Below, in pieces: positions 5,815 through 57,146 of a stretch of DNA of 64,000 nt. This stretch comes from a virus. Taxonomy: Duplodnaviria > Heunggongvirae > Uroviricota > Caudoviricetes. Both the position numbers and the translations under genes were made by a program. The notes under the pieces were generated by a model, which saw only the letters and a list, made by a program, of their open reading frames with translations, did no database searches and was not told where the DNA came from. Positions within the stretch are counted from its first letter, which is position 1; every line of letters starts with the position of its first letter. Where the stretch lies: positions 27,302 to 91,301 of IMG/VR virus record IMGVR_UViG_3300021387_000895; one strand, written 5' to 3'.

Positions 5815-5910
5815 CTGAATCCTGAAACCTGATAGCATTTGACTAATATGACGGGACCGTGGTATACTTGTACTGCGGTCTCGTCTTCTTATTCAAAATG
5901 GGAGGGTAGT

Positions 5911-27367: not shown

Positions 27368-28166
27368 CGAACAAACAAATCGACCTTCGGATTTTGTAGA
27401 ATGGCTTGGAAAAGATAATGTCATTGGTCAATCTATAATGGAGCGAAAGTATAGACGGCGTGGAGAAAGTTTTGATGAGTTCTTAAATCGAGTAAGCGGT
27501 GGAGACGAAGATCTTAAGGAACTCATTCTCGAAAAGAAATTCCTGCTTGGCGGTAGGACTATGGCGAATCGAGGACTCGATACTTCGGCGACATATTTTA
27601 ACTGCTATTCGATTGGGTTCGTTCCGGATGACTTTGGAGAGATCATGGATGTGGCTAAGAAGATCGGACTTACCTTCAAAGCTCAGGGAGGTCAGGGTCT
27701 TTCTTTAAGCAAGCTGAGACCTAAGGGAACACCCATTGGCAAGGATTATGCTTCCGATGGCATTATTCCTTTTATGAAACTTTATAACGAAGTAACTGCC
27801 GCTACAAGTCAGGGTGGGGCTCGTAAGGGAGCTTTAATAATGTCTCTAGATGCTCATCATAAGGAAGCTATGGACTTTATTAAGATAAAGTCAGAGCCAG
27901 GACTTATTGAAAAGGCTAATCTTTCGCTTGAGATTGATAATTCTTTTATGTCGGCTGCATGCAAAGAAGAGCCTCTATTCGAATTCCATGAATACTCAGG
28001 TCATAAAGTAGATTACAAGATCAATCCTAAAGATATTCTGCATGAAGTAGCAAAGGTGGCCTGGGATTGGGGTGAACCAGGAGTACTTTTTGTGGATAAA
28101 CTTCGCAACTATAATCTAATGCAATACGACGATGAGTATCAGATCGAAACAACGAATCCGTGCGGT
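27360..28166 (+). CDS. ribonucleotide reductase, exon 1 (class II NrdJ-like), ends NPCG
   Basis: N-terminal ...FDEFLNRVSGG... and NPCG active-site motif; reading frame hits a stop 2 codons later unless spliced. Confidence 0.7.
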
Positions 28167-28792
28167 CTCTGAATGATAAGTTGGCCCCACGTAAAACATC
28201 CCGAAAAATCGGTGAAAGCTAAACCAAAGAGCTTTGGCATGCTAATACCGAGTTTCTACTACATCACAGAGAAATGTAACGCATAGATAGTGAGCGCTAA
28301 GAGAGCAATAAACTATCCACGAGTTCGGGACTTTTGACACGTAAAAAAAGGAGAATCATGATAATTTATAAAGCAACGAATTTGATAAATGGGAAAGTAT
28401 ATATTGGTGCAACATCATTGAAACTTAATGCAAGAATCAAATACCATATAAAAGATGCTTATAGACCTGATAGACCTAAGGGACGTTTTCAAGAAGCGAT
28501 AATTAAATACGGAATCGATTCATTTGATTTCGAGCAAATTGAATGATGTTACAAATCATTATAAACCATTAACAGACTTTATAAATAGAAAATACGGAAT
28601 CTCTGATTTGAGAAGTTTATTCTTATGTCTAGATGTTAAAACCAAAAAAGAATTTGCTTTATCTTTAATTAAAATCGTGTCAGAAGAAAATATATGCTGA
28701 GCCGGTCTGAATCGACAGACGTATCGTTTTATAAACGTATGAGGGAAACCTCCGGAAATATAGGATAAAAAGCCTATATGATAACAACACTG
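28167..28792 (+). mobile_element. group I intron interrupting the RNR gene
   Basis: 5' exon ends in T, intron ends in G; splicing restores NPCG|EQPLPKHGACCLSSLNL; contains a homing-endonuclease ORF. Confidence 0.6.
28334..28546 (+). pseudogene. GIY-YIG homing endonuclease, truncated/decayed (70 aa)
   Basis: IYKATNLINGKVYIGAT GIY-YIG core; ORF stops right after the catalytic domain, no DNA-binding domain follows. Confidence 0.55.
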
Positions 28793-30253
28793 GAACAACC
28801 TTTACCGAAGCATGGTGCGTGCTGCTTATCTTCTCTTAATTTGTCAGAATTTGTTCGTTTCCCATACACAGAGAAAGCATTCTTCGCAAGTGGAGAGTTC
28901 GTTTTAGCTGTAGAGAAAGCGGTTAAGGCGCTTGATAAGTTAATTGATGAGAATTATAATCGGCATCCTTTAAAAGAACAACAAGAAATGAGTTTTAATT
29001 ATAGGAACATTGGCCTTGGTGTATTTGGTTATGGAACAATGCTCATGAAGCTTGGAATGCGATACGGTTCTGAGGAAGCTCTTAAGTTTACTGATGATAT
29101 TTTCGGTTTACTTTTTAGGGCAGCCGTTCTTGCCAGCAACGATCTCGCAAAAGAGTTCGGACCCTATCCTAAATACAAAGAGTGCGTCCTAGACAGTGAT
29201 ATTATTAAAGCTCATTTCAGACAAGACGAAATTGACGAACTGAAGCAATGCGGTCTTCGAAATTGCTCATTAATTTCGATTGCTCCAACCGGAACACTTG
29301 CGACATTGCTTGGCGAAACTAGTGGATGTGAACCAGAATTTGCTATGAAGTATACTCGTAGAACTGTTGGTATGACTGATGGTGATAACACTTACTATGA
29401 AGTCGATTGCAAGGCTGCAAAAGAGTATAAGGAAATTAATCATACCGATATTCTTCCTGATTATTTCGTCGCATCTGATGATATTCCTTGGATGGATCGA
29501 ATTCGCACTCAAGCGGTGATGCAAAAACATGTCGATACAGGTATTAGTTCTACAGTCAATCTGCCATATGAAACTAAAGTCGAAGAGATAGAAGACCTTT
29601 ATATTGAGGCGTGGAAACATGGTCTCAAGGGTATTACTGTTTTCCGAAAAGGATGCAAGCGAATGCCCATTCTTTCGATTGATAAGAAAGAAGGCGAGAT
29701 CAAAAAGATTGGTAAGATGAGAAAACTTACTACTGGTTGTGGATCTCTGCATCTATGTGCTATGTTCAATTCGGTTACGGGAGAGCTCATGGAGATATTC
29801 TTGAACAAGGGATCTTCCGGCGGATGCAATAACTTCATGATCGGTCTTAGTAGGCAGATCTCCCTTAATTGCCAGAACGGAGCAAAGATTGATGATATTC
29901 TTGATCAGCTTGCTTCATCTGGCGTGTGCCCATCTTATGCCGTAAGAACTGCAACAAAGCATGACACTTCTCCTGGTTCATCTTGTCCTGTTGCAGTAGG
30001 AAAGGCACTTAAGGAGATGTGGGAGGAGATGCAAAGTGAGCTTCGAACCGTGGCAAAAGATACTGCTAAAAACAATGATTCTCAAACCAGAACTAGTAAA
30101 ACAAAACACTATCAGGATTCCAAGAAAGATGGGGAAATCTCAAATGGAGTTGAAGCATATGATGGAAAGAAGTGTCCAGTTTGCGGAAAAGCAATCGACC
30201 ACATCGGAGGATGTGACCAATGTACCAACTGCGGATGGAGTAAATGCGAGTGA
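28793..30253 (+). CDS. ribonucleotide reductase, exon 2 (C-terminal zinc-ribbon CPVCG..CDQCTNCG)
   Basis: EQPLPKHGACCLSSLNL active-site loop and further RNR barrel motifs. Confidence 0.7.
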   Translation, partial: EQPLPKHGACCLSSLNLSEFVRFPYTEKAFFASGEFVLAVEKAVKALDKLIDENYNRHPLKEQQEMSFNYRNIGLGVFGYGTMLMKLGMRYGSEEALKFTDDIFGLLFRAAVLASNDLAKEFGPYPKYKECVLDSDIIKAHFRQDEIDELKQCGLRNCSLISIAPTGTLATLLGETSGCEPEFAMKYTRRTVGMTDGDNTYYEVDCKAAKEYKEINHTDILPDYFVASDDIPWMDRIRTQAVMQKHVDTGISSTVNLPYETKVEEIEDLYIEAWKHGLKGITVFRKGCKRMPILSIDKKEGEIKKIGKMRKLTTGCGSLHLCAMFNSVTGELMEIFLNKGSSGGCNNFMIGLSRQISLNCQNGAKIDDILDQLASSGVCPSYAVRTATKHDTSPGSSCPVAVGKALKEMWEEMQSELRTVAKDTAKNNDSQTRTSKTKHYQDSKKDGEISNGVEAYDGKKCPVCGKAIDHIGGCDQCTNCGWSKCE

Positions 30254-30748: not shown

Positions 30749-31519
30749 ATGAATGCTAAATTTGTAGTCAAAACTTTGTGGAGTTGGTGTAAACGTCATT
30801 CAACAAGGTTGTTGGCTGGAGGAGCTATTTTAGCAGAAGCATGGGGTTTTTACTTTATGCATAGAGAAGCTCCAGTTGTTAAGGAACGACTAGATAATCT
30901 CGATCCTGATGCAAAATGGTATGAAAAGGTCAAGACAAGTGTACCCGTATATTTACCAGCAATCGGTATGTTTATCGTGTCATCGGCATGTATTGTCGGA
31001 GGCTGTATTGCAGGGGAAGCCAAGACGGCAATGATGGCAGGATTATATTCCGCATCAGCAGCAGAACTTCAAAAGTATAAAGACAAGATGATCGAAACTG
31101 TAGGTGAAGACAAAGCTCAAGAAATCCATAATGATATTGCAAGAGATCTTGAAAAGAAATCTCCGTCTTCATTTGACGAATCGATGATTGAGTATACGAA
31201 TCATGGAGGTCAATTGTTCTATGATCCGAATACGGCAAGGTTCTTTACTTCGACTGAGAGTTATATTTTGAAGTGTGTTGAGAAGATTAACAGCAAGATT
31301 TATGGTGTAGACATGTGGGTAAGTGTTAACGAGTTTTACGATGAACTTGGGATTACTCACGCTAAGTTGGCCGATCCATTTGGTTGGAATATAGACCATA
31401 AATTGGATGTATCTTTCGCACCTGCCAAGACTGATGATGGAAGATATTATGGAGTTCTTGTCTATTTCAACGAGCCGAGACTCTATAATGGAGAACTTCC
31501 GAAAAATATTAACGATTAA
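30749..31519 (+). CDS. membrane protein, paralog family member A (2 TM + conserved C-domain)
   Basis: C-terminal ARFF..NEFYDELGI..GW block shared with the 32500, 35264 and 36896 products. Confidence 0.5.
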   Translation: MNAKFVVKTLWSWCKRHSTRLLAGGAILAEAWGFYFMHREAPVVKERLDNLDPDAKWYEKVKTSVPVYLPAIGMFIVSSACIVGGCIAGEAKTAMMAGLYSASAAELQKYKDKMIETVGEDKAQEIHNDIARDLEKKSPSSFDESMIEYTNHGGQLFYDPNTARFFTSTESYILKCVEKINSKIYGVDMWVSVNEFYDELGITHAKLADPFGWNIDHKLDVSFAPAKTDDGRYYGVLVYFNEPRLYNGELPKNIND

Positions 31520-31573
31520 TCTCATAGGGGCTACTTAAATGTAGCTCCTTATATTTTTGAGGAGGAAACTGGT

Positions 31574-32485
31574 ATGAAGAAGATAATCATTTCTGTTCTT
31601 TTGGCAATCTTTGTGTCTTTGCTTGTAATCGATCTCCTTAATCCTACTTATGGATTCTTTGCGAAAGTGGACGCAGGCTATGCAGGGGTAGTAGATTACT
31701 TCGGAGATGTTAAAGATACACCTCTCAAACCTGGTTTTCACGTTACAAGATATTTCGAGCATGTGCATCCTGTAAGTATTAGAACTCAAAAGACGACATA
31801 TATCATTGAGGCATTCTCGTCTGATATTCAGCAGGTAGTCATGACTGTATCGGTCAATGCAAACGTATCGGAGGAGAGCGCTGGTATTCTCTACAAAAGG
31901 GTTGGCATGCATTACCAGGACACCCTTATCGAGCCAAAGCTTCAAGAAAATGCCAAAGTCGTGGTAAGTAAGTATACAGCGGAAGCATTGATCGAGAATC
32001 GTGAAATCTTGTCCAGAGAGATTCTTGAAAAGATGCAGGATGACATCTCTCCTTATGGGATTAAGGTCACTGATGTTTCCATTGAAAATCTTGATTTCAC
32101 TGATGCTTTTGAAGCGGCTGTGGAAGCAAAGCAAGTAGCTACTCAGGAGAAGCAAAAGGCTAAGACACAGGAAGAACAGAAGACGATGGAAGCTCAGCAA
32201 GCAGCCGAACGAGAAAAGATCAAGGCTGAGACAGAGGCATCTGTTCGCAAGATTCAAGCAGATTCTGAAGCTTATGCGATCCAGGCAAAGGCAGAAGCTA
32301 ATGCTCAGGCAAATATGAAGATATCTGAAAGCCTCACCCAGGAGCTCATTGACTACACCAAAGCTCAGACATGGGACGGCAAGCTTCCGACGACTTATGT
32401 TGGCAATGATGGCTCAATTCCGATTATTCAGTCAACTCAAGAGCACCAGACTACAGATCCAATATTTGAAGAATTCTCTAAATAA
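31574..32485 (+). CDS. SPFH / band-7 (prohibitin-stomatin-HflK/C-like) membrane protein
   Basis: N-terminal TM helix, SPFH core (IRTQKTTYIIEAFSSD..., YGIKVTDVSIENLDF), EQ/A-rich coiled C-terminus. Confidence 0.7.
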   Translation: MKKIIISVLLAIFVSLLVIDLLNPTYGFFAKVDAGYAGVVDYFGDVKDTPLKPGFHVTRYFEHVHPVSIRTQKTTYIIEAFSSDIQQVVMTVSVNANVSEESAGILYKRVGMHYQDTLIEPKLQENAKVVVSKYTAEALIENREILSREILEKMQDDISPYGIKVTDVSIENLDFTDAFEAAVEAKQVATQEKQKAKTQEEQKTMEAQQAAEREKIKAETEASVRKIQADSEAYAIQAKAEANAQANMKISESLTQELIDYTKAQTWDGKLPTTYVGNDGSIPIIQSTQEHQTTDPIFEEFSK

Positions 32486-32499
32486 TTGGAGGATCAATT

Positions 32500-33204
32500 A
32501 TGGTCATCACAAAGAAAACCATAAGTCTTGCCTTAAGTCTTGTTTCGATACTCGGCGTAGGCATGACAAGTATTCTTTCGATCAAAGGTCACGAAAAGGC
32601 ATCTGCTGAAACTGATGAAAAAGCCAAGATAAAGCATTATATTCCTCCAATTGTAAGTGGAGTTGTCACAAGTGCATGTATTCTTGGGGCTTACGGAGCA
32701 TCAGCAAGTGAGATTGCAACTCTTACAGCGGCTTGCAGTTGTCTTACAGCTAATAAAAGTAAAATAGAACAAGTGATAAGTGATAAGTTGGGACCTGAAG
32801 AACTCAAAGATATTAAAAAGCAAGCACTTCCGGTAGTTCCAGTTCAAAGGACTGTAGAAGACACTGGATATGGAAGTCTGCTTTGCTTTGAAGAGTATTC
32901 TGCAAGATTTTTCTATTCTTCAATGGAAGCAGTAGAAGACGCAGAAAAGAAGTTGAGTTCTCGATATAGGAATGGTCATAGGATAAGTCTTAATGATTTT
33001 TATGATTACTTAGGCATACAGAGGACTACCTTTGGTAATAATTGGGGATGGGTTCCAGATCCAAGTACATTCAATCCAAGATATTACGACGATAATCCAC
33101 TATGCTTTGATGATCAGATTGTAGAAGATTCTATTACAAAGAAAGCGGTAAGACTTATCACTTTCTATAACTTCCCAACAAGTAATTGGATGTACGACGA
33201 ATAA
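32500..33204 (+). CDS. membrane protein, paralog family member B
   Basis: Two TM helices; ARFFYSS..NDFYDYLGI..NWGW. Confidence 0.5.
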   Translation: MVITKKTISLALSLVSILGVGMTSILSIKGHEKASAETDEKAKIKHYIPPIVSGVVTSACILGAYGASASEIATLTAACSCLTANKSKIEQVISDKLGPEELKDIKKQALPVVPVQRTVEDTGYGSLLCFEEYSARFFYSSMEAVEDAEKKLSSRYRNGHRISLNDFYDYLGIQRTTFGNNWGWVPDPSTFNPRYYDDNPLCFDDQIVEDSITKKAVRLITFYNFPTSNWMYDE

Positions 33205-33207
33205 GGA

Positions 33208-33528
33208 GTGATATTCATGTGGAGTAAAGGTGCTGTTGTGATCAAGAAACATGGTGACCAAAAGATAGCCGATGCTATTGCAGACGGAATGACTCTTCAA
33301 TTGGTATCTGCTGATGAATTCGAAGACATGAAGCGAGAAAACTTCTTTCTTAAAAAGAAGAACGAAGCCAGTATCCAAAAAGCCATTGATGATGCACAAC
33401 TTCAGTATGGCTATAATTGGGTTCCTCCAAAATGGGCTAATAAACTTGTTGGAGGAATTGCGTTAATCGTTTATGGCTTTTCCATATTCGTCGATAAATG
33501 CAGAAAACTGATAATCAGAGATTGGTAA
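33208..33528 (+). CDS. hypothetical protein (C-terminal TM)
   Basis: GGAGTGATATTCATG context. Confidence 0.4.
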   Translation: MIFMWSKGAVVIKKHGDQKIADAIADGMTLQLVSADEFEDMKRENFFLKKKNEASIQKAIDDAQLQYGYNWVPPKWANKLVGGIALIVYGFSIFVDKCRKLIIRDW

Positions 33529-33533
33529 TCACA

Positions 33534-33752
33534 ATGAAAAAGAAACACTGTTATATTTGCAACCGCGAAGTGGTTCCGGCATTTAAGTTCGGAGCCACTT
33601 TCTATACTCGAAAAAAGAAGCTAATTGGTAATGGGTACAAAATAGTGTCTCAATACAAACGGCTATATTTGTGTAGCAAATGCATTGAGACAGCAAAGGC
33701 TCTCATAAGTCACAATATCGCGGTCAAAACAAGCGACATAATAGACGAATAA
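33534..33752 (+). CDS. hypothetical zinc-ribbon protein
   Basis: CYICN..CSKC. Confidence 0.35.
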   Translation: MKKKHCYICNREVVPAFKFGATFYTRKKKLIGNGYKIVSQYKRLYLCSKCIETAKALISHNIAVKTSDIIDE

Positions 33753-33789
33753 ACTTTCGTCATATATTTTTTGTAAGGAGGAGACTAAA

Positions 33790-34089
33790 ATGGCTGACAC
33801 TAAGAACGACGTCAAGAAGGATTCCAAGGAGAAGAAAGGGTTTCTGAAGAAGACCGCTAAAGCAGCAAGTAGCGCAAGCGGCTGGGTCGTAGATAAGATC
33901 GTAAAGTATCCTAAGATGGCAGCGACTTTGCTGTTTGGTGTAGGTACGGCGGTTGGTTTTGCCGCCAGGATCATTTACGAAGGCGTTATGGCTGATGCAT
34001 CGTCTGTCGAGAACAATGTGATTGAGACTGAATTCGTTCCTACCGATGATGAAGTAGAGCAGACCGAAAATACTGTGACAGAAGATTAA
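33790..34089 (+). CDS. hypothetical membrane protein
   Basis: AAGGAGG RBS; terminator hairpin downstream. Confidence 0.4.
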   Translation: MADTKNDVKKDSKEKKGFLKKTAKAASSASGWVVDKIVKYPKMAATLLFGVGTAVGFAARIIYEGVMADASSVENNVIETEFVPTDDEVEQTENTVTED

Positions 34090-34162
34090 ATTGTAGTTTG
34101 GTGGGAGATGGATTTAGTGATTCAACTCCCACTTATTTTTTCTGATTATTGAGGTGAACTCA

Positions 34163-34441
34163 ATGAAGAATCCGTTTGACTCTTTGACTAAGAAGTTTGC
34201 TAAGACAGCTTCAGTCGAGGTTAAAAAGGAAGTCAAGAAAACAGTAATTGACTTACTTCCAGGAATTTTGACAATAGCCGGAACAATAATCGGCCTCGTT
34301 ATATTTCATAATGTTCATGATTCATATGACGATGAGCCTTGTTGCTTTCCAGCTCACAGCTCAACAACAATAACAACCAACAACTATTTCTTTCAGGATC
34401 TTTCAGAGGATATGATCAAAAAGATAATCGATGATGAATGA
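34163..34441 (+). CDS. hypothetical membrane protein
   Basis: GAGGTGA RBS. Confidence 0.4.
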   Translation: MKNPFDSLTKKFAKTASVEVKKEVKKTVIDLLPGILTIAGTIIGLVIFHNVHDSYDDEPCCFPAHSSTTITTNNYFFQDLSEDMIKKIIDDE

Positions 34442-34456
34442 GGAGGGCTCTGCCAA

Positions 34457-34720
34457 ATGGATGGTAATGAAAAGCTCAAGATTGTAAAGACTGTCGTCAA
34501 GTTTGTGGCGGCTGGTCTTGTAGAGCTTTTTACCGGAGCTGCTGTTGCAAATCTGGTAGATGGAGTAGATGGCGGTAAATTACCTAAAATTGGTGCGAAA
34601 GTAGGAGGTGCCTTAGTCGGACTAATGGTTGGTGATCAAGTAGGCGACTATCTCTGTGATGGGATAGACAGTATGCTTGAAGATATCGACGATCTTAAGA
34701 ACGCTATTGAGGAAGAATAA
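34457..34720 (+). CDS. hypothetical Gly-rich membrane protein
   Basis: RBS GAGGAGGG. Confidence 0.4.
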   Translation: MDGNEKLKIVKTVVKFVAAGLVELFTGAAVANLVDGVDGGKLPKIGAKVGGALVGLMVGDQVGDYLCDGIDSMLEDIDDLKNAIEEE

Positions 34721-34758
34721 TAAAGATAACTAATTAGAGTGCTGAAAGGGGAATAAAA

Positions 34759-35187
34759 ATGGAAATTATTAAGAAGATCGACGTTACTCTTACTGACGAA
34801 TTCATGTCTACTATTGCGTGTTTGGCAGGTACTATTATCGAAGATGATCAAGAGATGCGGATGATGGCTGTCCATCTTCTCATCGAAAGCATCATCAAAT
34901 ACAACATTGATTCAGAGTCTGCCGGTATTCTCCTGGAAGCTGCATCGGCTGCATGTTGCGGTGGTGAGACAGAAGAAAAACGTAAAAATGCAGCATCAAA
35001 CGTTATTGTAAAGACCTTAACTCCTAAGATTAAAAACCTGATTAATAATGGCACAAGAGAGGAGGGAGAGGCATTTGCTAATAAGCTCAAAGAAAAAATT
35101 AGCATAGTAAATGCTTCACCCGACGTCGATAAAACATTCGAAGATATTATGAATTCTTATTCGGTAAGCATCATCGAAGATGATTAA
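34759..35187 (+). CDS. hypothetical protein
   Basis: RBS GGGGAA. Confidence 0.4.
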   Translation: MEIIKKIDVTLTDEFMSTIACLAGTIIEDDQEMRMMAVHLLIESIIKYNIDSESAGILLEAASAACCGGETEEKRKNAASNVIVKTLTPKIKNLINNGTREEGEAFANKLKEKISIVNASPDVDKTFEDIMNSYSVSIIEDD

Positions 35188-35263
35188 AAAGGAAACTATT
35201 GTTGCCGTGTGTTTTAATGCATGCGGCAACACTTAACTATATTTATATCGGAGGTGATTTGGG

Positions 35264-35890
35264 TTGGAAGACCAGAACAAGGAAGAATTATATCCTGGTA
35301 ATTCTTACAGTGTCCAAAAACAGCCTTTAACAAAGCGATCTGAATCAGAAAAGAAAGAGCGAAGACAGAAACCTATTGCTCAAGCTAAAGAAAAGAAGAG
35401 GACCTTTGGTCAAAAATTTGCTGATAGATTTTTGTCTATAACAAAGGACGAAATACAGAATCGCTTGATTGATGAATGGTTATTTCCAGGAATTTGTAAT
35501 GCCATAGAAGATCTCGTTCACTTTATATTGTTTCAAGATCGTATTCGTCCTGGCTCCAGGCGTGATCGTGATGACGGTCGCATGAGGAGAATCGATTATA
35601 ATGGTCGTTATGACGAATCTCGAAGAGAGCCATATTTAAATCGAAGGACCAGACAACCGGAACTTGTATTTGATACACGAGACGAAGCAAACGAAGTCCT
35701 GGAGACTCTATACGAGTATCTTGACGATTATAGAAAGGTTACTGTGAAAGACCTTTACACGCTTGCTGACATGCCTACAGATTTTACGATGACAAATTGG
35801 GGATGGTACGATCTGTCAGACGCAATTGTTTTGAGATGTGATGAAGGTTTCTTACTTAGAATGCCAAAAATTCAAGAAATAAGGAGATAA
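35264..35890 (+). CDS. paralog family member C (basic N-terminus, conserved DLY..NWGW C-domain)
   Basis: VKDLYTLADMPTDFTMTNWGWYD. Confidence 0.45.
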   Translation: MEDQNKEELYPGNSYSVQKQPLTKRSESEKKERRQKPIAQAKEKKRTFGQKFADRFLSITKDEIQNRLIDEWLFPGICNAIEDLVHFILFQDRIRPGSRRDRDDGRMRRIDYNGRYDESRREPYLNRRTRQPELVFDTRDEANEVLETLYEYLDDYRKVTVKDLYTLADMPTDFTMTNWGWYDLSDAIVLRCDEGFLLRMPKIQEIRR

Positions 35891-35894
35891 TAAA

Positions 35895-36542
35895 ATGCTT
35901 AATCGTATGTCTGAAAAAGAAATTGAACTCGCAAATGATAATATTTACAAATTTGCACGGTGTATAGGAGCTACCGTTGAGAAAGAACTAAACAGTATAG
36001 ATGATCTTTGTGAAGTTACCATCAAAATGCCTTTCGACTACCTCTCCAGGTTTGGAATCAACATTCCTAGTCAAGAGCGAATGTCCGAAAAGAGAATTAA
36101 ATCGAGCTTCGAAGTCAAAGATGTTCGCGTCTATGGTGATCGTGTCGTGGTAATGTATTTTACTGACGGCACATATACCAAAGCGTGTTGTACAAAGAAT
36201 GATGCTGAAGATGGAAAGTTTGACATCGACATGGGCATCCTCATTTGCTTAGCTCGAAAAATGCTTGGTGATGATGGTAATAACCGAAAACTCAAAAAGA
36301 CGATTCGTTATATTCGTAAACTCATGAATGATAATGAAAAAGATCGAAGGAAGATTGAGGCAGAAAACAAAAAGAAGGAACAGGATAGGATCATAAAGAA
36401 TCTAAAGGCAGCCGAAGAGATTGCCAATGAGCGAAATAAGGACATTGATGATATTAAGAAAGCTATTATCGAAGCTCTGAAATACGTCAATGCATCTTCA
36501 AAAGATCCGATTCACGTAAATCCGGAGGATAACCATTCATGA
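35895..36542 (+). CDS. hypothetical protein
   Basis: AAGGAG RBS. Confidence 0.4.
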   Translation: MLNRMSEKEIELANDNIYKFARCIGATVEKELNSIDDLCEVTIKMPFDYLSRFGINIPSQERMSEKRIKSSFEVKDVRVYGDRVVVMYFTDGTYTKACCTKNDAEDGKFDIDMGILICLARKMLGDDGNNRKLKKTIRYIRKLMNDNEKDRRKIEAENKKKEQDRIIKNLKAAEEIANERNKDIDDIKKAIIEALKYVNASSKDPIHVNPEDNHS

Positions 36543-36793
36543 ATAGAGGCGGAAAAATCGTAACACCTATTCGAGAGGCCATGACCGATGATGGCATCGA
36601 TGGAGTGATATTTCATTGCAAAAACCGAAATGACGCTGAAAAAGTAAGGATCTCCTCAATAATCGTAAAGCACCGAAACGCATATGACTTCAAGACGCAT
36701 AGAATAGGCGCTGATCTTATCGTACATAAGCCCGAAGTAGATATTTTTGAAAATCCAACATATATTGATGCTGATATCGCATATGAAAAGTGA
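36539..36793 (+). CDS. hypothetical protein
   Basis: ATGA coupling. Confidence 0.4.
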   Translation: MNRGGKIVTPIREAMTDDGIDGVIFHCKNRNDAEKVRISSIIVKHRNAYDFKTHRIGADLIVHKPEVDIFENPTYIDADIAYEK

Positions 36794-36895
36794 TCGCGGT
36801 CAAAACAAGTTTGTTGGTGATAAAGGGCTCTAAATACAGGGCTCTTTATTTTTCTTTATAGGGAATGGACCAAATAAAAATCAGGAGGCAGGATT

Positions 36896-37939
36896 ATGAA
36901 ATTCCCAATCAAGATCAAAATTCCACCTAAACTCACAAACTTCTACATCAAAGCAATGACAAAAGTGAAGCATAAGTCACCAGAGATTTGTCTTGGAATT
37001 GGAATCGTAACCGGGGTTGGTGCTGTCATTCTTGTCGGTATAAAGACCTGGAAGAATAAGGATTTGCTCATGGATGATGCAGCAGAAATTGTAAGACTTA
37101 CTGACTACGATCCGGAAAATGATAACGATCCTAATAATCCTCTTTTAACTGAAGAAGAACGAATCATTGATCTTAAGAAAGCTAAGAAAGAAATGCGGAT
37201 GGATATCGTAAAGACGTATTGGATTCCAGTTGTATTGACTATAAGCTCTATCAGCTTTACAATTGGTGGATATCGAATTCTTCGCAAAGAACTTGCCACG
37301 ATGACTGCTGCATACGCTCTGTTGCTCGATTCTTATAAGCGTTATATTCAGAATGATATTAATCGCAACGGCATCGAGAGTTATCAGGACAACATGCATG
37401 GCATCAAGATGGTTGACACAATTGATGAGGAAACCGGAGAAGTCGTACAAAAAGCCATTGTGCAAAGGGAACTCAATTGTTCACGATATGCTCGCTGGTT
37501 TGATGAGGGTAATTATGACAGTGCTATTTGTAAGTGGATTTGGCGTAATCCTAATTGGCATCACAACAAAATTGAGTGCGCTCGTCGTGTCAAGATGATT
37601 CAAAGTTCTCTTAATGACACCCTTCATATGCGTGGATGGATGAAGCTCAACGAAGCTTACATGGCTTTCGGACTTCCTTGCAGTGAGGAAGGTGAACATG
37701 TTGGTTGGGTCCTTGGCTCTGGCCATGATGACTTTATCGATGTTGCCGTGTTCCCCGATTTCCAGAACGGTCGTCATCAGCTTCCTATTAATAAGAAGTT
37801 CCTTGATGAGCGAGATCCACAGAACAATTGCTTGCTCGACTTCAACGTCGATGGCTGCATCGATTACATCTTCAAAGATATTCTCGAATACGACAATCGG
37901 AGCTATATCAGTTATGACAAGCGTAAGGCTCTACAGTGA
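36896..37939 (+). CDS. membrane protein, paralog family member D
   Basis: Two TM helices; LNEAYMAFGL...VGW. Confidence 0.45.
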   Translation: MKFPIKIKIPPKLTNFYIKAMTKVKHKSPEICLGIGIVTGVGAVILVGIKTWKNKDLLMDDAAEIVRLTDYDPENDNDPNNPLLTEEERIIDLKKAKKEMRMDIVKTYWIPVVLTISSISFTIGGYRILRKELATMTAAYALLLDSYKRYIQNDINRNGIESYQDNMHGIKMVDTIDEETGEVVQKAIVQRELNCSRYARWFDEGNYDSAICKWIWRNPNWHHNKIECARRVKMIQSSLNDTLHMRGWMKLNEAYMAFGLPCSEEGEHVGWVLGSGHDDFIDVAVFPDFQNGRHQLPINKKFLDERDPQNNCLLDFNVDGCIDYIFKDILEYDNRSYISYDKRKALQ

Positions 37940-37968: not shown

Positions 37969-38787
37969 GTGAATACTAAGATTATTTATGGCGTTTCAGG
38001 TCTCTTAATCGGTAGTTTTCTTGGTGGAGGTACCATATCATTTGTTGCCACAAGAAGCCTTAGAAAGCGTATTAAAGAGCTTGAAATTCAGAACGAAGAT
38101 CTGATCGCCGAGAATCATAAAATCGCTCAGAGGGGCCTTAGAAGCCGCGAGAAGGGCCTTAAAACACAATCTTTACCAGAAGTTAAAAAAGACGACACAA
38201 TTAAGACTGAGGAAAAGGCTAAGAGTCGTCTTGAAAGCGAGCTTGAGCTACAGGAGAAGCAGGTAAAAACCGACTATGCAAAGCTCAGCAAAGAGTATGG
38301 AAGTGAGTCATTTGATGAGCATTTTGCCGATAGGGTTGGGCCTACTGATGAAGATGATCAGGAAGAAGATGGCGAAGAAGACGATGATTCTGACGACGAC
38401 CTAATCGACGATGACGAAGATGTTGTCGATGACACTTATAGAATCGTTGAATACACTGGAGATCCAAATGGAAGCATACATCAAATCACTTCTCAGGAAT
38501 TCAGGGATGACATTAACTACAGAGATAACGACACTTTCATCTATTATCAGGAAGATGATGTTCTGACTGATTCCAAAAACAATGTAATTCAGGATCATGA
38601 AAAGATAATTGGTTCTGAATGTATGGGAATCATTTGCGATACAGAAGAGGATTTCATCTATCTTGAAAATGAAATAGAGGATAAAATCTACGAGATAATC
38701 GTCAACCATAATGACAGCTTGTTCCGTGATATTATGGGCAATCCAATTTATTATGATGATAAAGATACAGAAGATGAGGTGGTCTAA
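37969..38787 (+). CDS. hypothetical membrane-anchored, highly acidic protein
   Basis: N-terminal TM helix; D/E-rich. Confidence 0.4.
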   Translation: MNTKIIYGVSGLLIGSFLGGGTISFVATRSLRKRIKELEIQNEDLIAENHKIAQRGLRSREKGLKTQSLPEVKKDDTIKTEEKAKSRLESELELQEKQVKTDYAKLSKEYGSESFDEHFADRVGPTDEDDQEEDGEEDDDSDDDLIDDDEDVVDDTYRIVEYTGDPNGSIHQITSQEFRDDINYRDNDTFIYYQEDDVLTDSKNNVIQDHEKIIGSECMGIICDTEEDFIYLENEIEDKIYEIIVNHNDSLFRDIMGNPIYYDDKDTEDEVV

Positions 38788-40482: not shown

Positions 40483-41361
40483 ATGGGTGGAGGATGCTGG
40501 ACGAAAGCTTCTTATGATGCTTCTATCTCGAGCCGAGGATTCAAAAACAAGAGTGATATTTCCAAATCGAATGTTCAGGCGTTCTATAAGTCAACAACAA
40601 TTCAACCAGAACTCAATCCATATAAAGTTATCCGAGAATGCAGGGACAGCGAAGAGCATCCTGAGACTCTTCCAATTATATTAGCTCTTGATGTCACCGG
40701 CTCTATGGGATCGGCTGCTAAAGCTTGTGCAGAGAAGCTTGACGAAATCATGGAAGAACTCTATAAGACAGTCAAAGATGTTGAGTTCCTTATGATGGGT
40801 ATCGGTGACATGGCATTTGATGAAGCTCCGGTCCAAGCTTCTCAGTTTGAGAGTGATATTCGCATTCTTGATCAAACCTCCAAGATTTGGTTTGAAGGTG
40901 GTGGAGGACCAAACAAGTGGGAATCATATACGGCTGCCTGGTATTTTGCTCTCTATCATACCAATCTTGATTGCTGGAAGAGAGATAAGAAAGGAATCGT
41001 TATCACAATGGGCGATGAAATGCTGAATCCTTATCTCAAGGTAGAACATGTGAACAAAGTGTTCGGAGATACAAATCAGCAGCAAAACCTTGACGATTAT
41101 ATTGAGAGCAAGAAGTTATATCCTCTCGTGTCTGAAAAATATGACGTATTCCATATCGGAATTGATGATCCACATAGCACATTCTGGTACAACAAAGATG
41201 ATATTCACGATACCTGGCAAAGGCTTCTTGGTAAAAACTATCTTGAGGGGAGTAGTAAAGATCTTCCTCAATTGATCTCTGCAATTGTCAATAAAGCAAG
41301 ATCAAATAGTGTTGCTGAGTCGACAGGAGTAACCGTTGGTGCTAATGGTATTAGATGGTGA
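40483..41361 (+). CDS. von Willebrand factor A (vWA) domain protein
   Basis: LALDVTGSMGS MIDAS-type motif followed by Rossmann-like alternation. Confidence 0.55.
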   Translation: MGGGCWTKASYDASISSRGFKNKSDISKSNVQAFYKSTTIQPELNPYKVIRECRDSEEHPETLPIILALDVTGSMGSAAKACAEKLDEIMEELYKTVKDVEFLMMGIGDMAFDEAPVQASQFESDIRILDQTSKIWFEGGGGPNKWESYTAAWYFALYHTNLDCWKRDKKGIVITMGDEMLNPYLKVEHVNKVFGDTNQQQNLDDYIESKKLYPLVSEKYDVFHIGIDDPHSTFWYNKDDIHDTWQRLLGKNYLEGSSKDLPQLISAIVNKARSNSVAESTGVTVGANGIRW

Positions 41362-49047: not shown

Positions 49048-49072
49048 GTGATATTCTGAAAGGAGTGAGTAT

Positions 49073-51475: not shown

Positions 51476-52048
51476 ATGGTGATGTACGCAGTCAATTACG
51501 GATTTGATATTGATCAGGATTACTTTGCTTGGCTTTGTGAAATGGTGCACATCGATCAGATGGATAGGAGCTATATGAACTTAGCAAAGGATCTGCATCA
51601 CCGGAAGTTTTACTCGTTGGTATCCCACGATGAGAACCGAGCGAGCGATGGACAGGAATTAAGAGAGTATTATATGAGAGAGATCAACTATCCAAAGTAT
51701 TTGGAGCTTGAAGGAGAATGCTCTGTACTTGAGATGCTGATCGGCCTTGCGAGAAGGATGGATTTTGAGACCAACAACCCGTATGATATTAACGGTCCAA
51801 AGGACAAAACGACTTATTGGTTCTGGGAAATGATTGATAATTTGGGGCTTATGAAGTTCTCAGATGACGTCTATTATCAAAACGGTGGAGCCAATAAGGT
51901 TGATAAGATCCTCGATAGATTCTTGAACAGGAGATATTCCAAGGATGGAACTGGCGGTCTGTTTCCGCTTGATAATCCAAGGCGGGATCAACGAGAAGTT
52001 GAGATTTGGTATCAGATGAACAGCTATCTTGCGGAGAGAGAAATGTGA
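51476..52048 (+). CDS. hypothetical protein
   Basis: Early motif variant (CTCGCGCTGAAAACACG) upstream; GGAGGTG RBS. Confidence 0.45.
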   Translation: MVMYAVNYGFDIDQDYFAWLCEMVHIDQMDRSYMNLAKDLHHRKFYSLVSHDENRASDGQELREYYMREINYPKYLELEGECSVLEMLIGLARRMDFETNNPYDINGPKDKTTYWFWEMIDNLGLMKFSDDVYYQNGGANKVDKILDRFLNRRYSKDGTGGLFPLDNPRRDQREVEIWYQMNSYLAEREM

Positions 52049-52925: not shown

Positions 52926-55900
52926 ATGGACTTCTATAAAATCAGGGAAAGGAGTCGCAAAGGTGGGGTTGAAATTTACCCTGATTTTCGAGTCGATGAT
53001 CTCGAGGATCTCCTTGTTCGAGGCGGTAAGTTTTATGCGGTGTGGGATGACGACAAAGGTCTGTGGTCACAGAATCCATTAACAGCACGAAGGATAGTCG
53101 ATAAGGATCTTTGGGAGTATGCTGATAAATTCAGAGACAAGTTTCACTTTGATGGTCCGATCAATGTAATGACCATGGAATCGGATTCGAGTGGTTCATG
53201 GAATCGCTTCGTTGCATATTTGAAACGCTCTCCTGATTCCAATGTTCAGCTCGACAACAAGCTTACGTTTCTGAACAGTAAAGTGACGAAGAAGGACTAT
53301 ATTTCGAAGCGGCTTGACTATGCGCTTGAAGAGGGTGACTATTCAGCATGGGATAAAATTGTAGGGACTTTGTACGATGAGAAAGAGAGGGAAAAGATTG
53401 AATGGTCTATTGGTGCAATTATATCTGGAGACAGCAAGACCATTCAGAAGTTCTGTGTGTTCTATGGTGAACCCGGAACTGGTAAGGGAACTATTCTGGA
53501 AATCGTACAGAGATTGTTCAAAGGATATTTTACCGTATTTGATGCGAAAGCTCTTGCTTCTGCTTCCAATCAGTTCTCGACAGAGATGTTTGCTTCAAAT
53601 CCTTTGGTTGCTATGCAGACCGAGGGTGACCTTTCCAGAATCGAAGATAATACAAAGCTGAACGCGATCGTATCTCACGAGCCTATTGTGATAAATGAGA
53701 AGAACAAATCACAGTATATGGGAAAGGCGAATTGCTTCTTGATGCTGGCTACAAATACTCCTGTCAAGATAACCGATGCGAGAAGTGGTATCATTCGAAG
53801 GCTGATTGATATTAATCCGAGCGGAAGGACGATCCCTTCGAATGAGTATGAGGCACTCATGAGTCAGATTGATTTTCAGCTCGGGGGTATTGCATGGCAT
53901 TGCCTTCAGGTGTATCGAGAACTCGGCAAGAATTACTATAAGACTTACAAGCCTACACAGATGATTATGAAGACCGACGTCTTTTATAATTTTGTAGAGG
54001 CTAATCTTGAGACATTTGAAGGGCAGGATGGGATATCTCTCAAACAAGCTTATGCGATGTATAAGGATTACTGTGATGAGGCTCTTGTAGAATACAAGTT
54101 GCCTAGACATCGTTTCAGGGAGGAGCTTAGAGCTTATTATGATCGGTTTGATGAGGTAACGAGAGATCCTGATGGGAAGCAGATCAGGAGCTGGTTCTCG
54201 GGATTTAAGAAAGATAAATTTGAACCGCCCGTTTTAAAGAAAACTCAAAAACCATTGGCGATGGTTCTCGAGTGTACTGAAAGTCTACTGGATGATATTT
54301 TGGCTGATTGTAAGGCTCAGTATGCGAACGAGGATGAAAAGCCAAGTATTGCGTGGAGCAAGGTTGAGACGAGACTTAAGGATCTCGATACGACCAGGCT
54401 CCATTATATTTTGCCCAAGAATCCGGAATGGAAGTACAAGTTGATCATGATCGACTTTGATATTAAGAATGCCGATGGTGAAAAAGACATGCTTCTTAAT
54501 CTGGAAGCTGCAAGTAAATGGACAAAGACTTATGCTGAGTTTTCAAAAGGTGGCGGAGGAATACACCTGATATATTGGTACGACGGGGATATTGACAAGT
54601 TGTCTTCTGTGTATGCTCCAGGAATTGAAGTGAAAGTGTTTAGAGGCAATTCGTCAATGCGAAGGAGATTGTCGAAGTGCAATAACATTCCAATTGCCGT
54701 TCTGACTTCAGGACTTCCTATGAAGGAGGAAAAGATGATTGACGTAAAAGCTGTTAAATCTCAGAAGAAGCTGGTTGAAATTGTTAAGGACTGTTTGAAT
54801 AAAAAGCATCATGGAGCTACAAAGCCTGAGATTGATTTTTTAGTAAAGATATTGGATGATGCATACAACAGCGGATTGGTATATGACATAAGCGATTTGG
54901 AGCATGATATTCTCATGTTCGCTATCAATTCGAGTCATAACGCCCTTTATTGCAAGAATCAAGTCAAGAAGATGAAGTTCAAGTCTGATCAGCCGATCGA
55001 AGAGGTTTCTCAGAGAAAAGATCCTGTTACAGATGAACTTGTGTTCTTTGATATTGAGGTATTCCCCAATCTGTTGCTGGTGAATTGGAAAATTGCCGGA
55101 GATGGTAATCCTGTAATGAGAATGATAAATCCGTCTCCACAGGATATTGAGAATCTGTTTAAGTTTAAGCTGGTTGGATTCAATTGCAGAAAGTACGACA
55201 ATCATATTTTATACGGAAGATACCTTGGTCTCAGTGTTGAGGAATTATACGATCTGTCACAAAGGATAATTGTTGAACAGGCTCGTGATGCTTTTTATCC
55301 TGAAGCATACAACATCAGTTATACAGATGTTTATGATTTTTCAAGTAAAAAACAGAGCCTTAAGAAATTTGAGATCGAACTTGGCATTCATCATCAGGAG
55401 CTTGGTCTACCATGGGATAAACCTGTTCCGGAAGAGATGTGGAACCAGGTTGCAGAGTACTGTGACAACGATGTTATAGCGACTGAGGCTACTTTTAATG
55501 CCCGTAAAGCTGATTTCACAGCAAGACAAATTCTGGCGGCTGTTGCTGGTCTTACGGTCAATGATACTACAAATACACTTACAACAAGAATTATATTTGG
55601 TGGTGAACGTAAACCTCAGCATGAGTTTAACTATCGCGATATGGGGGATGAATCCGATGCCCATATGAGTACGGATGATATTTTAACCGATAAGCGATGG
55701 ACGGTATTTGACAGTAAAGGTCGTCCAATCTTTCCTGGATATCGGTATGAGTTTGGTAAATCGACTTACCGAGGGGAAGAAGTTGGTGAGGGAGGCTATG
55801 TGTATGCAGAGCCAGGAATACATTGCCATGTCGCTCTTCTTGATATTGCATCAATGCATCCATCATCCATTGTCGCTGAAGATCTGTTCGGACCTACATA

Positions 55901-57146
55901 CACTCAGCGGTTCCATGATATTCTGAATGCTCGAATTGCTATAAAGCATGGCGATTTTGATACAGCAAGGAAACTGCTGGATGGTAAATTGGCCCCGTTC
56001 CTCGATGATGAGAAAGCTGCAAAGGATCTTGCTCAGGCTCTGAAGATAGCTATCAATTCAGTTTACGGATTGACAAGCGCCAGGTTCGAGAATCCGTTCA
56101 GGGATAAGAGAAATAAGGATAATATTGTTGCAAAGCGTGGAGCTCTGTTTATGGTTAATCTTAAGCATGAAGTTCAGGCTCGCGGATTTACTGTTGCACA
56201 TATTAAGACTGACTCAATCAAGATACCCAATGCTACACCTGATATTATTCAGTTCGTTATGGAATACGGAAAGCTTTACGGATACAATTTCGAGCACGAA
56301 GCTACGTATGATCGTATGTGCCTTGTTAATGACGCAGTTTATATTGCAAGGTTTGCCACTTCTGAATGGTGTGAGAATGAGTATGGATATTCTCCAAAAG
56401 AGAATTATGAGGATGGCGGACAATGGACTGCTACCGGCGCTCAATTTCAGCAGCCATACGTGTTCAAGACTTTGTTCTCGGGCGATGAATTGATGTTTAG
56501 CGATTTCTGCGAGACAAAGAGCGTTACCGGAGGAGCTATCTATTTGGACATGAATGAATCGCTTCCTGATATTTCAGACACTGAGGCAACACTTGAGAAG
56601 GCTATGAAGAAAAGTGGCATCACATTGGATGATATTCTAAGATGTGAAGCCGATCCTTATGCGATTGAAGGTATGAATTCTGATCAAGGCAGCGTGATGC
56701 ACTATTTACTAGAGCTTAGAAAGGATATTTCAGCATGCCATGATTATCACTTTGTCGGAAGGGCTGGATTATTTACACCAATAAAGCCTGGAGCCGGAGG
56801 CGGTGTAATGTACCGAGAAAAGAACGGAAAGTATTACGCTGTCGGTGGAACAAAGGGCTATAGGTGGCTTGAAGCCGAGGTGGTGATGTCGCTTCACAAA
56901 GAGAATGATATTGACAAAAGGTATCATGAGGATCTTGCAAACGAGGCAATCAAAGCTATCTCTGAGTATGGAGATTTTGAAGCATTCGTTTCTTCTGAGC
57001 CTTATATTTCATATGATGATAGTAAACCTCCGTTTGATCTGGTTCCATGTGGAGATGGCAAATACAACACATGCATGGAATGTCCAGCCTGTAAAGGAGA
57101 TCAATGCCTTAATGGGTATAGCTTATCTACTTATGTGAATGGGTGA
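52926..57146 (+). CDS. fused replicase: P-loop NTPase + AEP primase-polymerase domain + family B DNA polymerase with 3'-5' exonuclease
   Basis: Walker A GEPGTGKGT (aa ~183); AEP motifs MIDFDIKNADGEKD and SKGGGGIHLIYWY; Exo I FFDIEVFPN, Exo II FNCRKYDNHIL, Exo III YCDNDV; Pol A LDIASMHPSSIVA, Pol B KIAINSVYG, Pol C HIKTDSI. Confidence 0.75.
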   Translation: MDFYKIRERSRKGGVEIYPDFRVDDLEDLLVRGGKFYAVWDDDKGLWSQNPLTARRIVDKDLWEYADKFRDKFHFDGPINVMTMESDSSGSWNRFVAYLKRSPDSNVQLDNKLTFLNSKVTKKDYISKRLDYALEEGDYSAWDKIVGTLYDEKEREKIEWSIGAIISGDSKTIQKFCVFYGEPGTGKGTILEIVQRLFKGYFTVFDAKALASASNQFSTEMFASNPLVAMQTEGDLSRIEDNTKLNAIVSHEPIVINEKNKSQYMGKANCFLMLATNTPVKITDARSGIIRRLIDINPSGRTIPSNEYEALMSQIDFQLGGIAWHCLQVYRELGKNYYKTYKPTQMIMKTDVFYNFVEANLETFEGQDGISLKQAYAMYKDYCDEALVEYKLPRHRFREELRAYYDRFDEVTRDPDGKQIRSWFSGFKKDKFEPPVLKKTQKPLAMVLECTESLLDDILADCKAQYANEDEKPSIAWSKVETRLKDLDTTRLHYILPKNPEWKYKLIMIDFDIKNADGEKDMLLNLEAASKWTKTYAEFSKGGGGIHLIYWYDGDIDKLSSVYAPGIEVKVFRGNSSMRRRLSKCNNIPIAVLTSGLPMKEEKMIDVKAVKSQKKLVEIVKDCLNKKHHGATKPEIDFLVKILDDAYNSGLVYDISDLEHDILMFAINSSHNALYCKNQVKKMKFKSDQPIEEVSQRKDPVTDELVFFDIEVFPNLLLVNWKIAGDGNPVMRMINPSPQDIENLFKFKLVGFNCRKYDNHILYGRYLGLSVEELYDLSQRIIVEQARDAFYPEAYNISYTDVYDFSSKKQSLKKFEIELGIHHQELGLPWDKPVPEEMWNQVAEYCDNDVIATEATFNARKADFTARQILAAVAGLTVNDTTNTLTTRIIFGGERKPQHEFNYRDMGDESDAHMSTDDILTDKRWTVFDSKGRPIFPGYRYEFGKSTYRGEEVGEGGYVYAEPGIHCHVALLDIASMHPSSIVAEDLFGPTYTQRFHDILNARIAIKHGDFDTARKLLDGKLAPFLDDEKAAKDLAQALKIAINSVYGLTSARFENPFRDKRNKDNIVAKRGALFMVNLKHEVQARGFTVAHIKTDSIKIPNATPDIIQFVMEYGKLYGYNFEHEATYDRMCLVNDAVYIARFATSEWCENEYGYSPKENYEDGGQWTATGAQFQQPYVFKTLFSGDELMFSDFCETKSVTGGAIYLDMNESLPDISDTEATLEKAMKKSGITLDDILRCEADPYAIEGMNSDQGSVMHYLLELRKDISACHDYHFVGRAGLFTPIKPGAGGGVMYREKNGKYYAVGGTKGYRWLEAEVVMSLHKENDIDKRYHEDLANEAIKAISEYGDFEAFVSSEPYISYDDSKPPFDLVPCGDGKYNTCMECPACKGDQCLNGYSLSTYVNG

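Follow-up and report, generated by a model that had tools for sequence, protein, structure and literature searches.

A conserved array of DUF6353 and phrog_4079 genes upstream of a primase-polymerase, and an independent SPFH insertion, in a virus of the class Caudoviricetes

Do an SPFH gene and the membrane-protein genes around it in a phage genome form a single functional module, or are they neighbors with separate histories? The question is raised by a 7.2-kb region (positions 30,749 to 37,939) of a 64,000-nucleotide stretch, hereafter the window, which covers positions 27,302 to 91,301 of the Caudoviricetes record IMGVR_UViG_3300021387_000895 in IMG/VR. An initial annotation proposed that four membrane proteins encoded there, by genes here called A, B, C, and D (starting at 30749, 32500, 35264, and 36896), are paralogues with a common C-terminal domain, and that they surround a prohibitin/stomatin-like SPFH gene (starting at 31574) as parts of a membrane-microdomain, superinfection-exclusion or anti-defence module. 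All five open reading frames (ORFs) are present on the + strand, which carries all of the coding in the window (GC ~39%), and a GGAG-type (Shine-Dalgarno) ribosome-binding site lies 5' of each (coordinates are given in Table 1). The region had zero matches in a nucleotide search against phage records, and proteins of the window recur on metagenomic contigs (Logan SRR873601, ENA, and NCBI GCA_001684375.1). We hold with high confidence that the locus combines members of two protein families joined by a shared core, a conserved gene array, and an SPFH gene that is an independent insertion.

The profile search for a known domain family that the initial annotation had recommended identified DUF6353 (PF19880) in three of the four proteins. 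Against the Pfam gathering threshold of 25 bits, hmmscan scored A at 121.2 bits (E 6.8e-35), B at 105.2 bits (E 5.2e-30), and D at 112.8 bits (E 2.5e-32, model positions 2-252), and all three also match phrog_2152 (A at E 1.2e-33). Direct BLASTP comparison of A and B is significant (1e-15, 28% identity across 169 residues), and the A-D pairwise match is weak (E 0.023), although the same Pfam model is matched by both. Each of the three has the architecture of the family, namely two N-terminal hydrophobic helices followed by a C-terminal domain (C-domain) with conserved N..Y and GW. The motifs from which the paralogy had been deduced are less widely shared than was claimed: ARFF is limited to A and B, as is an exact N[ED]FYDxLGI (NEAYMAFGL in D and KDLYTLADM in C), so that the full set, including NWGW, stands for A and B, and the only residues common to all four proteins are Y and GW. 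In a neighbor-joining tree, DUF6353 proteins form three clades. The A-type clade, in which A clusters with Gob34, Lew44, and Oen18, occurs in nearly every lineage examined; the B-type clade occurs in the window's clade, FP_oengus, and some IMG/VR contigs; and the long D-type clade occurs in all lineages examined. Short copies number one or two per lineage, and three divergent ones fall outside the named clades. A, B, and D are three old DUF6353 paralogues and new members of a catalogued, functionally uncharacterised family, for which no paper was found by name or accession (DUF6353 / PF19880).

The product of C belongs to a different family. It matches phrog_4079 (E 7.5e-36) over profile positions 4-213 of 214 and holds all conserved positions of that family (PxNS, P75, Y112, A142, G180-W181, and P201). 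Pfam DUF6353 has no hmmscan match to C, which does not qualify as a member by that measure, BLASTP of C against A and against B is not significant, and the phrog_4079 profile matched none of A, B, and D in the PHROG search. Hydropathy and charge analysis indicates that the helical hairpin of DUF6353 is not present in C. Instead, residues 1-60 form a basic stretch (pI 9.8) with the PxNS motif, as had been noted originally for the N-terminus of C, followed by a hydrophobic helix (61-92), an Arg-rich linker (93-131, pI 11.5), and an acidic C-domain (132-208) with VKDLY...GW; V-x-D-L-Y and an invariant GW characterize the C-domain of the family. When a profile of C and its relatives was run against 1.84 billion cluster representatives, 7075 representatives of 50%-identity clusters were recovered at E<=1e-3 and 5081 at E<=1e-10, and members are nearly all 195-228 aa long. 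No Pfam or NCBIfam model matched the family, and all records inspected are annotated as hypothetical. One member, ReqiPepy6 gp067, carries a record note of similarity to Lactococcus phage 1706 gp43.

Profile-profile alignment connects the two families through a short core of 37-59 columns with the pattern V-x-[DE]-x-Y...GW. Shallow profiles gave an hhalign E of 2.8e-4 over 59 columns, and deeper profiles (157 and 29 sequences) gave 4.9e-5 over 37 columns with a probability of 68%. The core score of 39.7 compares with a mean of 14.1 (sd 2.9, maximum 20.0) for 30 column shuffles and with 13.0 for a reversed-profile control. The likeness could nevertheless be convergence, or a short motif held in common, in which case the locus would contain three paralogues and an unrelated neighbor. 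The lack of an hmmscan match and of a significant BLASTP alignment for C is consistent with this, as are hhalign probabilities of 41-68% over 37-59 columns only and the poor structural model of C. However, the score lies ~9 sd above the column-shuffled controls, 7 of 79 phrog_4079 members match Pfam DUF6353 weakly and in the same region each time, and a phrog_4079-family HMM matches the C-domain of B (E 4.4e-4). Additionally, stand-alone copies of the phrog_4079 C-domain (88-140 aa) are encoded just 3' of the full-length gene in FP_oengus (L003, 9364-9630) and in an IMG/VR contig (L014, 10901-11272 and 11369-11791), with E values of 2e-15, 4e-22, and 3e-12. This domain is thus a modular one, with local duplication, and the DUF6353 HMM matches stand-alone ORFs in both loci weakly (E 0.15-0.3) and colinearly. 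Foldseek comparison of the B model with BFVD found local structural matches (88-95 columns, probability 0.9-0.98) with viral proteins of ~208-235 aa and ~91-111 aa, which, judged by size alone, are likely the phrog_4079-type and stand-alone forms. AlphaFold2 (AF2) models of B and C have the same order of elements in the core (strand, 16-residue helix, short strand, 8-residue helix, GW strand, and two strands), and the two families are strictly found together, in an order that does not vary, as described below. A chance resemblance is therefore improbable.

The similarity between C and DUF6353 is above chance for the short core only, and the profiles and models suggest that C is a probable distant DUF6353 relative with one sub-domain in common. 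The proposed four-way paralogy can thus be retained for A, B, and D, and C enters it solely through this core from a family of its own. The alignment statistics named at the outset as decisive are favorable for A-B by BLASTP, for A, B, and D by Pfam, and for the C core by hhalign against shuffles, and unfavorable for pairwise BLASTP with C. Separately, the Pfam family RepB_C gave sub-threshold matches to 7 of 79 phrog_4079 members (best E 3.3e-4, 13-15 bits vs a cut-off of 27.3) over ~29 residues in the first C-domain helix (consensus 144-172, C residues ~141-169). The neighborhood is one of replication genes, but this relation is not relied on, since a single helix is involved and the scores are under the cut-off.

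Two N-terminal transmembrane (TM) helices had been assigned to A, B, and D. The DUF6353 family-averaged hydropathy profile has two hydrophobic N-terminal peaks, and the AF2 model of B (pLDDT 80) has a helical hairpin (5-36 and 40-84), helices at 86-108, and a C-domain at 119-222 with the order beta-beta-beta-alpha-alpha-alpha-beta-beta-beta. The assignment holds at these levels, although, taken as single sequences, A and D each have one segment (TM1 and TM2, respectively) that does not reach a simple Kyte-Doolittle threshold. The N-terminal charges (+5 in A, +2 in B, and +8 in D), the ~55-aa acidic loop between the two hydrophobic helices of D, and the basic sequence after its second helix argue for an N-in/C-in arrangement with cytoplasmic C-domains, which are acidic (pI 4.3-5.9). 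By the positive-inside rule, the DUF6353 C-domains are therefore predicted to face the cytoplasm, and probably do so.

Local HMMs were run on array-bearing loci to map synteny. The 12 independent loci long enough for testing were GoblinVoyage, Lewando, FP_oengus, ReqiPepy6, two related metagenomic contigs (L004 and L007), and six IMG/VR contigs. In all 12, one or two short DUF6353 genes (250-300 aa) are followed by a phrog_4079 gene (199-228 aa) and a long DUF6353 gene (292-378 aa). The 3' part often begins with a homologue of the 37969 product (Table 1) and continues with a phrog_4678 gene (170-200 aa) and a giant primase-polymerase gene (1233-1406 aa). L008 and L015 are truncated yet consistent, L015 being a near-duplicate of L014, and L004 and L007 stop before phrog_4678 and the polymerase. 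Close 5' of the polymerase, phrog_4678 was found in 11 of the 11 polymerase-containing loci, ten of which carry the array. The eleventh, L021 (CALEPS010000111.1), is the sole polymerase match in species-representative genomes (64% identity); this 21.7-kb contig stops short of the array, and its metagenome-assembled genome was binned as Bacteroidales, a host assignment that is uncertain. No match was obtained when species-representative genome contigs were scanned with phrog_4079 patterns. The window holds every part of the array, with additional genes inserted between these parts.

The two families are also co-extensive in distribution. Among 50,697 phage records searched with tblastn, DUF6353 was found in 232 (query A) and phrog_4079 in 185 (query C) or 250 (query Lewando gp55). 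Genus counts for query A and Lewando gp55 are identical: 95 Arthrobacter, 55 Gordonia, 7 Curtobacterium, 4 Rhodococcus, 4 Microbacterium, 2 Faecalibacterium, and 12 'Siphovirus'. Together with the Lactococcus 1706-type phages, these phages make up the Actinobacteria-Firmicutes supercluster of Koert et al. (bioRxiv 10.1101/842583), in which structural genes and late replication genes were described as conserved blocks. The signature of this 1706/BI supercluster is found in the window, with a phrog_4210 polymerase, phrog_4678 before it, and the DUF6353/phrog_4079 array upstream. By its synteny the array marks the Lactococcus-1706 / Streptomyces-BI / ReqiPepy6 / FP_oengus supercluster, of which it is an old core feature.

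This conservation bears on what the DUF6353 proteins might do on their own. They could be superinfection-exclusion or injection-blocking proteins comparable to T4 Imm and Sp or lactococcal Sie, multiplied by arms-race duplication. In favor of this, the DUF6353 proteins are membrane-anchored and occur as several paralogues, with short copies varying between one and two per lineage, and the window encodes an integrase, so that the phage is probably temperate. However, exclusion and anti-defence genes tend to have a patchy distribution, and an array that is a core feature of its lineage is atypical of them. The three DUF6353 clades are old and keep a fixed order across phages of Actinobacteria and Firmicutes, phrog_4079 always accompanies them, as expected of core genes rather than of exclusion genes with fast turnover, and the conserved domain is predicted to be cytoplasmic. 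An exclusion role is thus very unlikely.

The position of the array relative to the lysis genes bears on another possibility, that the DUF6353 and phrog_4079 proteins act late and on the envelope, as holin-associated, lysis-timing or membrane-remodelling factors of a lysis region. In actinophages the array directly follows a holin gene and a run of many small membrane-protein genes, and in the window the first TM segment of D, and this segment alone, resembles the Phage_holin_5_2 model (E 0.0014). The latter score is below the cut-off (19.3 vs 29.2 bits), and identification of D as a holin was rejected. Known holins do not resemble proteins such as these, which are 230-350 aa long and have a large, conserved cytoplasmic domain. 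Furthermore, the endolysin and integrase genes (3809-4831 and 5839-6840) lie 26 kb 5' of the array in the window, where the integrase and ~25 kb of further genes part endolysin from array, and in FP_oengus the array is located between integrase and polymerase. Where a lysogeny module and many other genes come between array and lysis genes, as in these two phages, the array keeps to the polymerase side, which argues for linkage to the replication arm and not to lysis. A late envelope function is quite improbable on these grounds. As for the surrounding lysis and lysogeny region of the window, a tail-spike-like gene (2629-3600) precedes the endolysin gene, whose product has ELLD and SH3_3 domains, and the integrase is of the tyrosine type; all three are on the same strand.

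The product of 31574 is, as initially described, a prohibitin/stomatin-like SPFH protein. It scores 97.4 bits against Band_7 (PF01145; cut-off 23.6, E 1.3e-27, residues 31-202) and matches phrog_200 (E 6.7e-45). Among relatives with solved structures, prohibitin-1 and -2 are best (E ~1e-17 to 1e-16), followed by QmcA and HflK (HflK 4e-5), and the NCBIfam equivalog cut-offs are not reached (hflK 26.9 vs 159.4 bits; hflC 23.0 vs 134.4 bits). The protein has a signal-anchor (4-22), the SPFH domain (31-202), and a charged helical region rich in Ala, Glu, Gln, and Lys. It starts with MKK, and the sequence following the TM helix at 4-22 is acidic, by which the SPFH domain is predicted to lie outside the membrane, like those of HflK/C and prohibitins. 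The opinion that SPFH genes are uncommon in phages is not supported. In the same set of phage records, 315 matched (274 from Staphylococcus, others from Rhizobium, Fusobacterium, Alteromonas, etc.), homologues have 27-37% identity over 83-94% of their length, and phrog_200 is an established family. Phage SPFH genes have been noted earlier as accessory 'moron' genes whose role is not known (PMC10269572) and are listed in T4-like phages (PMC1524935).

A single membrane-microdomain module of the SPFH protein and the four others, excluding superinfecting phages or countering host defence, was the reading originally put forward. Some features of the locus accord with it. The SPFH gene lies between A and B, ending 14 nt 5' of B, and is between A and B also in L007, with the same arrangement as in the window, and in L008. 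Its supposed partners are without exception membrane proteins, and small TM genes are numerous close by. SPFH proteins such as HflK/C and flotillins scaffold membrane complexes, and solved HflK/C and prohibitin cages are among the relatives of this one. However, among array loci the SPFH gene is confined to the window's nearest relatives, and even there its position varies. In L008, an additional 285-aa gene parts A from SPFH. In L004/L005 the SPFH orthologue (E 5e-144) precedes the ribonucleotide reductase gene, ~4 kb 5' of the two short DUF6353 genes, which are direct neighbors there with no SPFH between them. In other array lineages, no SPFH gene was found within the ~12.6-20.7 kb examined. 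Among named genera, the lists of SPFH and DUF6353 matches overlap in Faecalibacterium only, and by way of different phages, SPFH being found in Toutatis and Lelie and DUF6353 in FP_oengus. Toutatis has the nearest SPFH protein of a cultured phage (37% identity), and no DUF6353 neighbor.

Further evidence from the window itself is in agreement with this. A terminator-like hairpin is located between A and SPFH, though it is tentative because such sites are no more numerous in the region than expected by chance. The SPFH domain and the DUF6353 C-domains are predicted to be on opposite sides of the membrane, outside and inside respectively, such that direct contact is unlikely. PADLOC returned one weak match for SPFH (PbeC, E 0.0099, 12.5 bits), which is not convincing, and neither NCBIfam nor PADLOC had matches for A, B, C, D or their neighbors. 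No gene for an SPFH partner subunit is nearby. Of the four genes, only A and B can be said to surround SPFH, C being 2.8 kb and D 4.4 kb downstream of it. Therefore, with an array conserved in a lineage without SPFH, an SPFH gene of variable position, and no convincing defence match, an SPFH-centered module is highly improbable. The SPFH gene is a clade-restricted insertion, variable in position and not part of the conserved core; it is an ordinary accessory gene of mobile position, and that it lies within the array is probably accidental.

A function for the array can be proposed by analogy. Proteins p16.7 and p1 of phage phi29 are membrane organizers of phage DNA replication that are small, membrane-anchored, equipped with cytoplasmic domains, and encoded among replication genes. 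In a similar manner, the DUF6353 proteins would be N-in/C-in helical hairpins, each with a helical stalk that presents an acidic alpha/beta domain at the cytoplasmic membrane face, and the phrog_4079 protein would put the same kind of domain at the inner face by means of its basic stretch and hydrophobic helix. With several copies of one acidic interaction domain thus gathered, the two could form a hetero-oligomeric docking platform there, organizing an intracellular early or middle phage process, of which replication or transcription by the adjoining primase-polymerase module would be the likeliest. The SPFH protein would most likely be separate from it, an accessory membrane scaffold of HflK/C-like topology, possibly one by which a membrane protease of the host, for instance FtsH, is corralled or modulated. 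We consider the docking mechanism conceivable but rather unlikely in this form. A bolder version is less probable still, in which the DUF6353 paralogues, the phrog_4079 protein, and the acidic TM protein encoded at 37969 would be a lineage-defining platform tethering replication or transcription machinery to the membrane, a second, unrelated solution to the task of phi29 p1 and p16.7, to which the window's clade would add a phage-built SPFH cage on the outer face. Taken as a whole, identification and mechanism blended, the docking explanation is the best one, with a chance that we would put slightly below even.

Several points weigh against a docking platform. The link to replication comes from gene order only, and in the window ~15 kb of other genes are located between D and the polymerase. 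The acidic C-domain gave no sign of DNA binding, and no sequence or fold match to phi29 p16.7 was obtained from the array proteins. The topology is a prediction, and the AF2 model of C is of low confidence (pLDDT 51), too poor for a fold search. Profile searches of the PDB with both families found nothing but one chance-level match (E 0.54), and no sequence or fold relative of solved structure was found for either family, the C-domain never having been searched alone. The position of the array directly behind the holin and small membrane genes in actinophages keeps an envelope or lysis role in consideration. Finally, no experiment or paper bearing on the array was found, and Koert et al. (bioRxiv 10.1101/842583) make no mention of the DUF6353/phrog_4079 array genes.

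The remaining genes of the region are listed in Table 1. In the small-ORF block between B and C, a hydropathy scan found one hydrophobic segment in four of the five products and none in that of 33498-33752. Orthologues of the block are in the same order in L004, L007, and L008, and two of the products, those of 34154 and 34457, have matching ORFs in L010, a more distant locus, as well (E 3e-7 and 5e-7). The 33790, 34154, and 34457 products, the three tested, have no Pfam family. Similarly, the 34759-35187 product had zero Pfam or NCBIfam matches, and the 35895 and 36539 ORFs, which are kept only in the close relatives L004, L007, and L008, encode products with no significant family in Pfam, PHROG or NCBIfam. 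Downstream of D, the 37969 product is anchored by an N-terminal TM segment, beyond which it is very acidic (net charge -43, pI 4.2). Its homologues directly follow the long DUF6353 gene in six loci of distant lineages (L004, L007, L010, L013, L016, and ReqiPepy6), and it may belong to the same module as the array.

Table 1. Positions of the array genes, the SPFH gene, and neighboring features in the window
Feature	Coordinates	Strand	Description
A	30749..31519	+	256 aa; short DUF6353, A-type clade; basic N-terminus, two hydrophobic helices, acidic C-terminal alpha/beta domain
SPFH / Band-7	31574..32485	+	303 aa; prohibitin-like
B	32500..33204	+	234 aa; short DUF6353, B-type clade; start 14 nt past SPFH stop codon
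C	35264..35890	+	208 aa; TTG start; phrog_4079-family ('Cfam')
D	36896..37939	+	347 aa; long DUF6353, D-type clade
TM-anchored acidic protein	37969..38787	+	272 aa; phrog_4695 E 3e-9
phrog_4678-family protein	51476..52048	+	190 aa; phrog_4678 E 1.9e-54
Giant primase-polymerase	52926..57146	+	1406 aa; phrog_4210 E 0 over 1-1363; primase PHROGs, DUF5906
Terminator-like hairpin	31526..31549	+	9-bp stem then T-run, between A and SPFH; consensus scan, tentative
Small-ORF block	33208..34720	+	33208-33528, 33498-33752, 33790-34089, 34154-34441, 34457-34720
142-aa ORF	34759..35187	+	between small-ORF block and C; kept in L004, L008
Two ORFs between C and D	35895..36793	+	35895-36542 (215 aa), 36539-36793 (84 aa)
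Terminator-like hairpin	36819..36850	+	13-bp stem, 5' of D; tentative

Other parts of the window have features of their own. A ribonucleotide reductase gene (27360-30253) is split at barrel-domain position 213/216 into 27360-28172 and 28778-30253; that of L004 is a single intact gene (759 aa). The insert of ~600 bp contains a short GIY-YIG ORF (28334-28546, E 1.3e-4, exactly at the Pfam cut-off) and looks like an intron with a decaying homing endonuclease, and no Rfam intron family matched it. The gene at 40483-41361 encodes a 292-aa phrog_2971 protein with no Pfam match, in which LALDVTGSMG resembles, by eye, the von Willebrand A MIDAS motif. The product of 42280-43368 is adenylosuccinate-synthetase-like (PF00709, E 6e-21), matches phrog_1211, which bears a PurZ-type label, and may be either PurA-like or PurZ-like (the latter going with a 2-aminoadenine genome). 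Among phages, the closest homologues come from large Vibrio and Rhizobium phages and from one gut phage. That a PurZ-type Z-genome pathway defines the lineage was considered and rejected, as homologues of 42280 were not found in the DUF6353-bearing actinophages. At 48445-50451, just 3' of a sigma-70-type factor gene (47786-48448), are three tandem DUF5758 paralogues (phrog_9562; E 3e-28, 3.5e-33, and 4e-24), and a DUF5758 gene is present in L004 too.

As far as the literature searched shows, it is new that a domain links DUF6353 to phrog_4079, that DUF6353 falls into three clades, and that an invariant array lies 5' of the primase-polymerase. Neither family has an assigned function, yet both belong to the core gene set of a phage lineage whose hosts include Actinobacteria as well as Firmicutes, and phrog_4079 alone has >7000 cluster representatives in metagenomes. 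The shared domain, the fixed-order co-occurrence 5' of the primase-polymerase, and the probable cytoplasmic facing are a starting point for experiments in tractable relatives, among them Lactococcus 1706-type phages and the SEA-PHAGES phages of Gordonia, Arthrobacter, and Streptomyces. These observations help annotation and the choice of experiments, and do not reveal a new kind of system.

In comparison to known systems, A, B, and D have the same architecture as DUF6353/phrog_2152 proteins and differ in nothing substantial, and what is added to that family is its division into three old clades held in fixed gene order. C matches phrog_4079 at full length, and this family is tied to DUF6353 solely by the core of ~40-60 aa. 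Like prohibitins and HflK-HflC, the SPFH protein of the window is a Band_7 protein with a single N-terminal TM anchor and a charged helical region; unlike them, it is phage-encoded, has no partner-subunit gene nearby, and falls below the equivalog cut-offs. It is homologous to other phage SPFH proteins (phrog_200), most records of which are from Staphylococcus phages and others from Rhizobium, Fusobacterium, and Alteromonas phages, Faecalibacterium phage Toutatis, and Burkholderia phage CSP3. However, a location inside a DUF6353 pair is found in none of these phages (the neighborhood in Toutatis was inspected). The likeness of the array to phi29 p16.7 and p1 is an analogy of architecture and gene neighborhood only: the C-domain of the array proteins is acidic and not of the DNA-binding type, and the associated polymerase carries a primase domain, so that protein priming is not expected. 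Lastly, the window shares the giant primase-polymerase and the unidirectional layout of the supercluster of Koert et al., and its DUF6353 and phrog_4079 proteins match the same genera, whereas the record from which the window derives is larger (94.5 kb) and has many insertions, the SPFH gene being one of them.

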